This document shows, in pieces, positions 25,356-26,904 of a DNA stretch of 32,000 bases (its first letter is position 1; each line of letters starts with the position of its first letter). Source of the stretch: Gammaproteobacteria bacterium (GTDB lineage Bacteria > Pseudomonadota > Gammaproteobacteria > JBIOEC01); the NCBI GenBank assembly GCA_965279305.1, contig OZ257143.1, forward strand, positions 360,001-392,000, written 5' to 3'. The notes beneath the pieces were generated by a model. It was given only the letters and a program-made list of their open reading frames with translations. It was not told the origin of the DNA and made no database searches. A program made the translations under genes and the position numbers.

Positions 25356-25385
25356 TTGACATGTTTGGTAGCTGACCCTTACAAT
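25356..25385 (+). promoter_or_regulatory. Candidate promoter of island gene 1, overlapping a GacA-box-like dyad
   Basis: TTGACA (25356-25361)-N18-TACAAT (25380-25385). The dyad TGGTAG-CTGACC-CTTACA sits at 25366-25383. Confidence 0.5.
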
Positions 25386-25424
25386 AATTCTCGAATCAAG
25401 TTTTTATTAGAGTGGTAATGATTC

Positions 25425-26111
25425 ATGAAAAGATATCTAGATCGATTAGAAAAGCCAGCATCTCCCGTTCCTGGCTACAGCAATAGAACAAAACCTGGTT
25501 TAACTTTTACTCCCTCTATATCTTCCATCCCCGTGGCCAGTAAAACAGAATTGCTTTTAGACCCACTACAAATTGAAATCAAGATATTGCCTTTATATGC
25601 TAGAGACGATTTTATAGCTAATTTCGACTATCCGGAAAATTCAGGGAAAAATCCTGAGGAGGCATTTAATGATCTGTTTGCACAAACATCCAAACAATTC
25701 GAAGAGATACGTCGCTTATCCCTAGAGGCTATGAAACAAGGAAAAAACCTTACACTAAAACCGGAAGATTACCTAAATAATGTTGCACAATTATCACGAT
25801 TAATTGAAAAATTACTACCAATTAATGCTGAAAAATGCCAAATATTCGAAGATTTAATTAATAAATTGCTAAAGGAAATGGAAAACATTTTTACTAAAAA
25901 CTCTCCTCCTCCTAGTCCAGAGAGCAGTTCTCTTCATAGACGAACTAGCAGTGGTGCACGCTCTTCTTTAAGCGAAGCGGTCAGTGCTTCTTATTTTGAT
26001 TTGCATGCACTCGTAGAAGGAAATGATCCAGATCAAAATAATGCAGATCAAGATAATGCAAAAGCATCTGCTGAACTACCCCCCGCTCAGAATAATCTGA
26101 CACCTGCATAA
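25425..26111 (+). CDS. Island orphan P1: 228-aa helical core with Ser/Pro/Thr-rich termini
   Basis: ORF with its own promoter and no signal peptide. The N-terminus is KPASPVPGYSNRTKPGLTFTPSISSIP. The C-terminal region contains SPPPSPESSSLHRRTSSGARSS and ends ...ELPPAQNNLTPA. Confidence 0.7.
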   Translation: MKRYLDRLEKPASPVPGYSNRTKPGLTFTPSISSIPVASKTELLLDPLQIEIKILPLYARDDFIANFDYPENSGKNPEEAFNDLFAQTSKQFEEIRRLSLEAMKQGKNLTLKPEDYLNNVAQLSRLIEKLLPINAEKCQIFEDLINKLLKEMENIFTKNSPPPSPESSSLHRRTSSGARSSLSEAVSASYFDLHALVEGNDPDQNNADQDNAKASAELPPAQNNLTPA

Positions 26112-26158
26112 AACACTATATAGTGTGTAAAAAAATTCAAAATATACCTAACTTTCGC

Positions 26159-26187
26159 TTGACTCCACTTCACTGAGTTTGTAAGCT
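26159..26187 (+). promoter_or_regulatory. Candidate promoter of island gene 2
   Basis: TTGACT (26159-26164)-N17-TAAGCT (26182-26187). Confidence 0.45.
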
Positions 26188-26200
26188 ATCTCCCACGACA

Positions 26201-26218
26201 AGTAAGCGTATGCTTACA
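26201..26218 (+). promoter_or_regulatory. GacA-box-like dyad / leader hairpin upstream of island gene 2
   Basis: AGTAAG-CGTATG-CTTACA matches TGTAAG-N6-CTTACA at 11 of 12 positions. It is followed by TTTTTT and the SD AAAGGAG, 20 nt before ATG 26239. Confidence 0.5.
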
Positions 26219-26238
26219 TTTTTTAAAGGAGTGCCAAT

Positions 26239-26727
26239 ATGTTGTTGAGAAGAAGATTTTTATCCACTACAGAATCAAACCAAAACTTACCTAAGTCTAA
26301 AAAACTCAAAAAAGAGACTGAAATAGATACTAAAAAAACAGCACTAAACGAGACAACAAGAAAAGACGCGTCTCCTACCAAGCCTGTTATACTCACGCCT
26401 CCTCGTACTTCAGAAGAAAGTGATACTGGTTCAGAAAGCGATGCTTCAGAAGGAAGAACCCGTTTAGAAGAATGGTTACGTAAAGAGGAATTTAACGATC
26501 CGAGAAGGTTCAATCATAACACTGCTGGCAGTGAGTACCAGCTACTGGATTATGCTGATGCCTCTATCAACGAGAAATCACACCTTTCTTTACCCTATTT
26601 ATTTGCCTCTTCACCCTATGGGTCTGATGATTCAGATTCTGAGACAGATGAGAATAGGCACCCTAATCGATCTTTATCAAGCAAGCCAGCACTTCCAGTG
26701 GCTAAAAGCGGCTCTACCCCTCATTAA
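26239..26727 (+). CDS. Island orphan P2: 162-aa disordered acidic protein with basic NLS-like N-terminus
   Basis: Strong SD (AAAGGAG) and a strong downstream terminator. KSKKLKK basic cluster; the acidic Ser clusters SEESDTGSESDASE and SDDSDSETDE; no hydrophobic core or signal peptide. Confidence 0.75.
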   Translation: MLLRRRFLSTTESNQNLPKSKKLKKETEIDTKKTALNETTRKDASPTKPVILTPPRTSEESDTGSESDASEGRTRLEEWLRKEEFNDPRRFNHNTAGSEYQLLDYADASINEKSHLSLPYLFASSPYGSDDSDSETDENRHPNRSLSSKPALPVAKSGSTPH

Positions 26728-26737
26728 AATAATCCCA

Positions 26738-26775
26738 AAAGCCAGGAAAAAATCCTGGCTTTCTTCTTGTTTCCC
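26738..26775 (+). terminator. Rho-independent terminator after island gene 2
   Basis: The 10-bp stem AAAGCCAGGA / TCCTGGCTTT (26738-26747 / 26753-26762) has loop AAAAA and is followed by the T-rich CTTCTTGTTT. Confidence 0.8.
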
Positions 26776-26839
26776 CCTAAAAAGACTATATTTAGATACA
26801 GTTATTTAGCTTCGAGAGCAGCCAAAACCGACACATTAG

Positions 26840-26878
26840 TTTACTTTCCAACTATTACATTGTAAGATATTGCTTACA
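26840..26878 (+). promoter_or_regulatory. Candidate promoter plus perfect GacA-box-like dyad upstream of island gene 3
   Basis: TTTACT (26840-26845)-N17-TAAGAT (26863-26868). The perfect dyad TGTAAG-ATATTG-CTTACA sits at 26861-26878, and an extra CTTACA half-site at 26896-26901 lies just before ATG 26905. Confidence 0.5.
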
Positions 26879-26904
26879 TCAACAATGGTCAATATCTTAC
26901 ATTT

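Follow-up and report, generated by a model that had tools for sequence, protein, structure and literature searches.

Conserved TGTAAG-N6-CTTACA dyads at the predicted promoters of an orphan gene island inside a gammaproteobacterial type II secretion operon

The window analyzed here is a 32,000-nucleotide (nt) stretch of a gammaproteobacterial contig (OZ257143.1, positions 360,001 to 392,000) in which an 18-bp dyad, TGTAAG-N6-CTTACA, occurs in front of genes of an orphan island that lies inside a type II secretion system (T2SS) operon. The T2SS genes are on the minus strand, where gspF, gspG, gspH and gspI occupy 31959-29335 and gspJ and gspK occupy 25280-23465. The island is flanked by gspJ on the left (24582-25280, minus strand; minor pseudopilin J, Pfam T2SSJ and N_methyl, 98.7% amino acid identity to sister strain L001) and gspI on the right (29335-29742, minus strand; minor pseudopilin I, Pfam T2SSI and N_methyl). 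It consists of four plus-strand open reading frames (ORFs), P1 to P4, oriented opposite to the gsp genes: P1 (25425-26111, 228 amino acids), P2 (26239-26727, 162 amino acids), P3 (26905-28716, 603 amino acids) and P4 (28723-29331, 202 amino acids). P4 starts 6 nt past the end of P3 and thus belongs to the same transcription unit, and a strong intrinsic terminator 3′ of P2 (26738-26762, plus strand; a 10-bp stem, then a T-run) separates P2 from P3. The island therefore has three transcription units, as the original prediction for this DNA had proposed.

All four proteins are orphans. Profile searches against Pfam and NCBIfam gave no match for any of them, and among 5.8 billion protein clusters a word-indexed search returned just two homologues of P3. 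P2 has a basic KKLKK stretch and an acidic Ser/Asp-rich tail; a nuclear-localization-like PKSKKLKKE is followed by acidic Ser/Asp/Glu runs (SDDSDSETDE), an arrangement that looks eukaryote-like when read from the sequence only. The host DNA is AT-rich (36-42% G+C across the window), and the nearest relatives of its RecG in the species collection, which include Coxiellaceae metagenome-assembled genomes, are 54% identical at most.

Three copies of the dyad had been reported, one before each transcription unit, and on re-check all three 18-nt sequences, the spacing of each to its ATG codon (41, 20 and 26 nt) and an extra CTTACA at 26896-26901 proved exact. The third dyad (26861-26878, TGTAAG-ATATTG-CTTACA) matches at 12/12 positions and lies at about -15 to +3 of a predicted P3 promoter; the extra CTTACA, a third half-site in the P3 leader, begins 17 nt past it and ends 3 nt before the ATG. 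The second (26201-26218, AGTAAG-CGTATG-CTTACA, 11/12) covers roughly +7 to +24 of the predicted P2 transcript and is followed by a T-run and an AGGAG Shine-Dalgarno sequence. With at most one mismatch allowed, these two are the only matches in the window (2 found, 0.15 expected), and none of 100 shuffles reached two. At up to two mismatches there are five matches in the window against 1.76 expected. Two sites, at 12420 and 20342, are as good as the one before P1, which contradicts the statement that the window holds no comparable dyad elsewhere. In a de novo test, a perfect 6-N6-6 dyad with a partner of at most one mismatch within 1 kb appeared in 17 of 400 simulated windows. The window taken alone suggests that the dyads are modestly significant, not conclusively so.

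The site before P1 (25366-25383, TGGTAG-N6-CTTACA, 10/12) is at chance level. It coincides with the spacer and -10 of the best sigma-70-like promoter in the island (25356-25385, plus strand; TTGACA-N18-TACAAT, 11/12), which in L001 reads TTGACA-N17-TACAAT. The left arm is TGGTAG in the window and TGACAG plus an indel in L001, within an intergenic region that is about 97% conserved, and in a third strain (L027/L028) the site is deleted along with P1. Sequence comparison thus gives the site before P1 no support as a dyad, and it is best read as an ordinary promoter in which CTTACA falls within the -10 by coincidence. Of the claim that dyads precede all three units, the part concerning P2 and P3 stands.

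Conservation was assessed in three strains: the window, L001 (a Logan assembly) and L027. L001 is syntenic with the window and its flanks are about 96% identical. The island itself is hypervariable. L001 lacks P4 (indel 28733-29292), and L027/L028 lacks P1 together with its promoter. Amino acid identity to L001 by BLASTP is 36% for P1 (42% over aligned codons), 57% for P2 and 61% for P3, and P2 ranges from 57 to 65% between strains. In the comparison of the window with L001, synonymous divergence (dS) of the island genes is 0.39-0.94, with P1 at 0.94, and the ratio of nonsynonymous to synonymous divergence (dN/dS) is 0.47-0.63; the five flanking genes have dS of 0.03-0.21 in four and 0.015 in the fifth (a Ras-like gene), and dN/dS of 0.04-0.45. 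This pattern suggests that old alleles were swapped by recombination, with or without diversifying selection.

Both the P2 and the P3 dyad are retained in all three strains. Upstream intergenic DNA of P3 is variable in 36 of 70 columns, and a conserved block begins at about 26833, some 7 nt upstream of the -35. From there the variable columns number 1/20 in the -35 block, 5/8 in the spacer, 0/8 in the left arm plus 2 nt, 2/4 in the dyad center, 0/6 in the right arm, 2/3 in the next 3 nt and 0/23 in the leader. At P2, the block 26180-26195 is invariant and the dyad varies in 1 of 18 columns, an A to G change in L027. Genomes other than that of the window, these strains and the more distant L024 (below), supply the decisive evidence that dyads 2 and 3 are genuine signals in the DNA and under conservation.

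Seven island promoters from five genomes, those of P2 and P3 included, share a promoter-leader module: a TTGACA-like -35, N17, [TG]TA(A/G)G(A/C)T, N4, a CTTACA-like hexamer, N17, (C/A)TTACA, N3 to about N50, and ATG. The -10 of the module, with its TG immediately 5′, is an unusual one. The -35 hexamers are TTTACT, TTGACT, TTGACA, TTGAAA, TTGACA, TTGATA and TTGCTA. The motif keeps a fixed register relative to them, with at least 4/6 of TTGACA placed exactly 17 nt 5′ of TA(A/G)G(A/C)T in 7/7 promoters (background 4.35% per position, P of about 3e-10). The right-arm hexamer is CTTACA in the window clade, CTTACA or CCTACA in the more distant relative L024, and CTTGCA, CTCAAA or TTCAAA in the relatives L029 and L030. 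The third half-site, (C/A)TTACA, is found at the same position in both L024 promoters (L024-a and L024-b), in L029 and before the 176-amino acid gene of L030, and is replaced by ACTGTA before the 486-amino acid gene of L030. No other site in the window and the related loci compared matches the 62-nt module pattern. A metagenome scan with it gave 16 matches, about the estimated chance number; eleven represent one locus of about 49% G+C on non-bacterial-looking contigs and the remainder are unconvincing.

For P2, we predict a plus-strand promoter at 26159-26187, with -35 TTGACT (26159-64), N17, -10 TAAGCT (26182-87) and a start near 26195; the -10 falls within a lone half-site, TGTAAG, at 26180-85. 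For P3, the predicted plus-strand promoter is at 26840-26868, with -35 TTTACT (26840-45), N17 and -10 TAAGAT (26863-68). We infer that the left arm of a P3-type dyad doubles as the -10 hexamer and that transcription would start on the A of CTTACA, at about 26876 for P3, which would place the third half-site of P3 at +21 to +26. All seven module promoters and that of P1 have sigma-70-like -35 and -10 elements 16-18 bp apart upstream of a gene, the starts being predicted. Alternative sigma factors (sigma-54, sigma-E, sigma-28, sigma-32 and RpoS) were compared by consensus sequence, and none fits. A bidirectional or antisense promoter built from the inverted -10-like copies was rejected, as the minus strand has no -35.

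Two further promoter-like sites border the island units. On the minus strand upstream of gspJ, TTGCCT-N16-TATGAT (25310-25337) could give gspJK a promoter of its own, now that the island separates these genes from the rest of the operon. Just past the P1 stop is a perfect 14-bp palindrome, ACACTATATAGTGT (26113-26126), which overlaps a promoter-like CTGACA-N16-TATAGT; it is kept in L001 and partly in L027, where P1 is deleted. At the other end of the island, P4 is specific to the window strain; L001 lacks a 560-bp stretch here and retains about 40 nt on each side, including TGTAAGCTTTATAAGCTT at the P4 stop, beside the gspI stop.

Four more genomes were reached through homologues of GspJ that are 54-60% identical to it. 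Between gspI and gspJ, L024 has six ORFs, L029 one and L030 two, all on the opposite strand, and L026 has one ORF on the same strand. A JGI relative has nothing at this position, and gspI runs directly into gspJ. The gspI/gspJ junction is a conserved insertion hotspot with differing orphan genes in seven assemblies (six distinct genomes), mostly in anti-gsp orientation (window 25281-29334; L024 4750-8000; L029 1393-2376; L030 1411-3875; L026 5655-8000). In these genomes the inserted, convergently transcribed genes thus part gspJ and gspK from gspC-I. The island proteins of these relatives have no BLASTP similarity to P1-P4 or to each other across genomes.

The dyad recurs in L024. The pattern, specified beforehand, has two matches with at most one mismatch in its island against 0.04 expected, and none of 200 shuffles reached two. 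Both are upstream of island genes unrelated by BLAST to P1-P4, and this recurrence is an independent replication of the motif. One dyad-bearing promoter precedes a gene whose 247-amino acid product (L024 6494-7237, minus strand) contains a genuine eukaryotic cyclin-dependent-kinase-inhibitor (CDI) domain of the p21/p27 type (PF02234, 46.5 bits, cutoff 25) with a WNFDF motif; judging from this domain, the protein could be a host cell-cycle effector. In the same ENA contig (622-3875 and 10427-12411), gspE, gspG and recG are all broken up into multiple ORFs, which points to assembly frameshift errors, and the four consecutive small island ORFs of 201, 137, 58 and 121 amino acids may be one longer gene. 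L030 has a cluster of three hexamers (TGTAAG-N21-CTTACA-N14-CTTACA, 5686-5738) where gspK and a 308-amino acid orphan gene adjoin, in the intergenic DNA; this additional locus shares the hexamers but arranges them differently.

We propose, with a probability of about one half, that dyads 2 and 3 serve as operators embedded in core promoters of this orphan, effector-like island, where they would occlude or block RNA polymerase. A dimeric DNA-binding protein on TGTAAG-N6-CTTACA would shut RNA polymerase out at P3. At P2, where the dyad is just downstream of the predicted start and the -10 is formed by the lone half-site, the same protein would act as a roadblock. Otherwise strong promoters would thus stay silent until a signal releases the repressor. 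Several observations argue for a reader of the dyad besides RNA polymerase: its place with respect to the promoter differs between units (-15 to +3 at P3, +7 to +24 at P2), the P3 arms are invariant around a variable center, a third copy of the hexamer is in the leader, and a three-hexamer cluster precedes the L030 orphan gene beside gspK. The near-consensus -35 and optimal spacing point to strong promoters that would be active unless negatively controlled. An activator could not work from where the dyads are, on the predicted -10 and start (P3) or in the leader (P2).

Some points weigh against an operator. The promoter register is a predicted one. The most distant relatives, L029 and L030, show a drifting right arm (CTTGCA, CTCAAA, TTCAAA) and a symmetry of just 3-4 of 6, so the dyad may be clade-specific, or only the promoter and leader may be conserved. 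All modules could derive from one ancestral promoter. As RNA, the P2 dyad is able to form a hairpin with a U-run behind it. Finally, no regulator protein could be assigned to the dyads.

The main rival is that the module is a core promoter and leader only, with no dedicated regulator: TGTAAG(A/C)T would be the -10, CTTACA the start context, and the leader would serve translation or mRNA stability, with the symmetry inherited from duplicated cassettes. We regard this as a less probable alternative. The -35/N17/-10 register in all seven promoters agrees with it, as does the retention of the module in L029 and L030, where symmetry is largely gone. P3, the 257-amino acid gene of L029 and the 176-amino acid gene of L030 have no Shine-Dalgarno sequence and have (C/A)TTACA-N3-ATG instead, which suggests a translational role of the leader. 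It leaves as mere coincidence (1 in 4096) that the right arm is perfectly complementary, in inverted orientation, to the hexamer that contains the -10, and it does not explain why that hexamer is present a third time. The full, conserved P2 dyad is located away from the -10, and a varying center between fixed arms, as at P3, is usual for a protein-bound dyad.

Alternatively, the transcribed dyad may act as an RNA element, its hairpin (GUAAGC-GUAU-GCUUAC plus a U-run at P2) serving as an attenuator, a 5′ stabilizer or a terminator of P1. This is possible at P2 only and we consider it unlikely. A terminator scan does flag 26202-26217 with its T-run (a 6-bp stem with 3 GC pairs, then T6), and the sole substitution in the P2 dyad, the A to G change of L027, keeps a G-U pair; however, the hairpin is weak (fold z = -1.3) and no compensatory pair is found among the three strains. 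The P3 region of the window can form a 12-bp stem, TGTAAGATATTG/CAATATCTTACA, at -14 kcal/mol (z = -4.0), but in L001 and L027 some of its pairs are broken with no compensating change, and L024 has no such stem. Given the predicted promoter, transcription would begin beyond the left arm of P3-type dyads. In L024-a there is an A-C mismatch on the sense strand, and no Rfam match was found.

Which protein would read the dyads was considered by comparison with known systems. TGTAAG-N6-CTTACA is the GacA/UvrY box, the upstream activating sequence of the genes for the CsrA-binding Csr/Rsm small RNAs (PMC8523701, PMC3171408), and the GacA two-component system is described as well conserved in gammaproteobacteria (PMC3171408). 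The match noted in the original prediction, 12/12 at P3 and 11/12 at P2 (PMC8523701, PMC3171408), is accurate; half-sites and spacing are the same and the host is likewise a gammaproteobacterium. This match is what favors a GacA/UvrY/LetA-type upstream activating sequence that drives the island genes, an explanation that we find very unlikely. Known boxes activate from upstream of small-RNA promoters, whereas the genes here code for proteins and the dyads overlap either their predicted -10 and start or their leader, a promoter-proximal placement already recognized as atypical. Dyad 2 ends 20 nt short of the ATG, and with the Shine-Dalgarno sequence inside that gap there is no room for a downstream promoter, and no usable -10 is found at activator distance past any dyad. 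Downstream are conserved ORFs, not Rsm-like RNAs, and an Rfam search found no Rsm/Csr-like RNA after the dyads. Activation of this type is ruled out by geometry; a -10 about 20 nt 3′ of the dyads and leaderless starts from TATCTT-type hexamers were both tried, and neither is consistent across sites. If a GacA-type protein does bind the island dyads, it would be required to repress.

The suggestion that the dyads are instead an operator for a different regulator is the one favored here, while the candidate offered for that role, the response regulator at 5207-5884, has no link to the motif. This protein, the sole response regulator in the window, is FixJ/StyR-like (137 bits on the FixJ model, aligning to StyR, PDB 1yio) and scores 38 bits on the UvrY/GacA model (cutoff 280). 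Its gene is 20 kb from the dyads, and a pattern scan of the window found no motif copy near it.

TyrR of Enterobacteriaceae provides a second comparison. Its box, TGTAAA-N6-TTTACA, has an invariant G-N14-C and is classed as strong at 10/12 or above; TyrR commonly represses protein-coding genes by covering the -35, -10 or start, with a strong box and adjacent weaker sites (PMC4374768). On this scale P3 scores 10/12 and P2, L024-a and L024-b score 9/12, all with G-N14-C, which L029 and L030 do not have. The island dyad is likewise an 18-bp dyad of the same spacing, and strong plus weak boxes resemble the dyad and its extra half-site 21-23 bp away. In contrast to TyrR boxes, the innermost base of the island arms is G/C rather than A/T, the extra sites have no second arm or G-N14-C, and the targets are orphan, effector-like genes rather than aromatic amino acid genes. 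No TyrR gene is present in the window. TyrR boxes are the nearest known case of such positioning and fit the geometry better than the GacA box does; the motif itself matches the GacA/UvrY/LetA box best.

In Legionella, the local effector regulators LexR1, RegK3, LelA-C, PmrA and CpxR bind elements at a set distance upstream of the -10 that replace the -35, and they activate (PMC13555631). The island resembles these networks in having a shared cis element before clustered, horizontally mobile, effector-like genes that travels with the genes (PMC13555631). It differs in having a strong -35, a dyad on the -10 and start, and no adjacent regulator gene. The LexR1 element, with GTC...GAC arms, is not the island motif. 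CRP, NtcA, lux box, LexA, Fur, ArgR, Fis, IHF, OxyR and CpxR motifs have the wrong spacing or half-sites. A bolder reading, which we consider improbable, is that the dyad with its extra half-sites is the operator of a dedicated regulator, perhaps the GacA/LetA orthologue acting exceptionally as a direct repressor of protein-coding promoters, and that this regulator directly silences a hypervariable, eukaryote-like effector island that lies inside a T2SS operon of a poorly sampled, Legionellales-like lineage and is transcribed in the opposing direction.

That the dyads are recombination sites at cassette boundaries behind the gene turnover at gspI/gspJ is the least probable explanation: the 6-6-6 geometry is like that of tyrosine-recombinase core sites and the genes found at this one site vary across six genomes, but the endpoints of the P1 deletion in L027 and of the P4 indel (28733-29292) are not at dyads, sequence is conserved on either side of each dyad, and no recombinase gene is present in the window or the related loci.

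The window has other features besides the island. A second variable spot within the region that is about 96% identical to L001 is a toxin-antitoxin swap at the same site (window 19535-20184, L001 2747-3323). The window encodes a TumE toxin with an HVO_A0114-type helix-turn-helix antitoxin, and L001, L020 and L021 encode BrnT/BrnA. The Ras-like gene mentioned above (20388-21317, minus strand, 309 amino acids) is located 14 nt downstream of recG, and its product matches part of the Ras-family GTPase model (PF00071, E = 2.4e-7); unlike the island genes, it is nearly identical between strains (dS 0.015). At 11675-14269 on the minus strand, a 754-amino acid orphan that looks coiled-coil and has no Pfam match is directly upstream of a same-strand Fis-family gene (HTH_8). 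The region of this orphan has the lowest local G+C of the window, 31-36%.

A promoter-embedded operator is a familiar kind of element; the setting, a hypervariable effector-like island inside a T2SS operon, is unusual. Practical value is modest at present. Silencing by a GacA/LetA-type or dedicated regulator, if true, would couple expression of the island to that of gspJ and gspK. If the operator reading is true, a GacA- or TyrR-like box would act at effector core promoters, outside the described effector networks, in which local regulators activate from upstream of the -10. The motif would then be a sequence probe for further members of the regulon and for the regulator. For a relative of Legionella and Coxiella that is uncultured, the dyads would define a small regulon of fast-evolving, host-targeting genes, one allele of which has a CDI domain.

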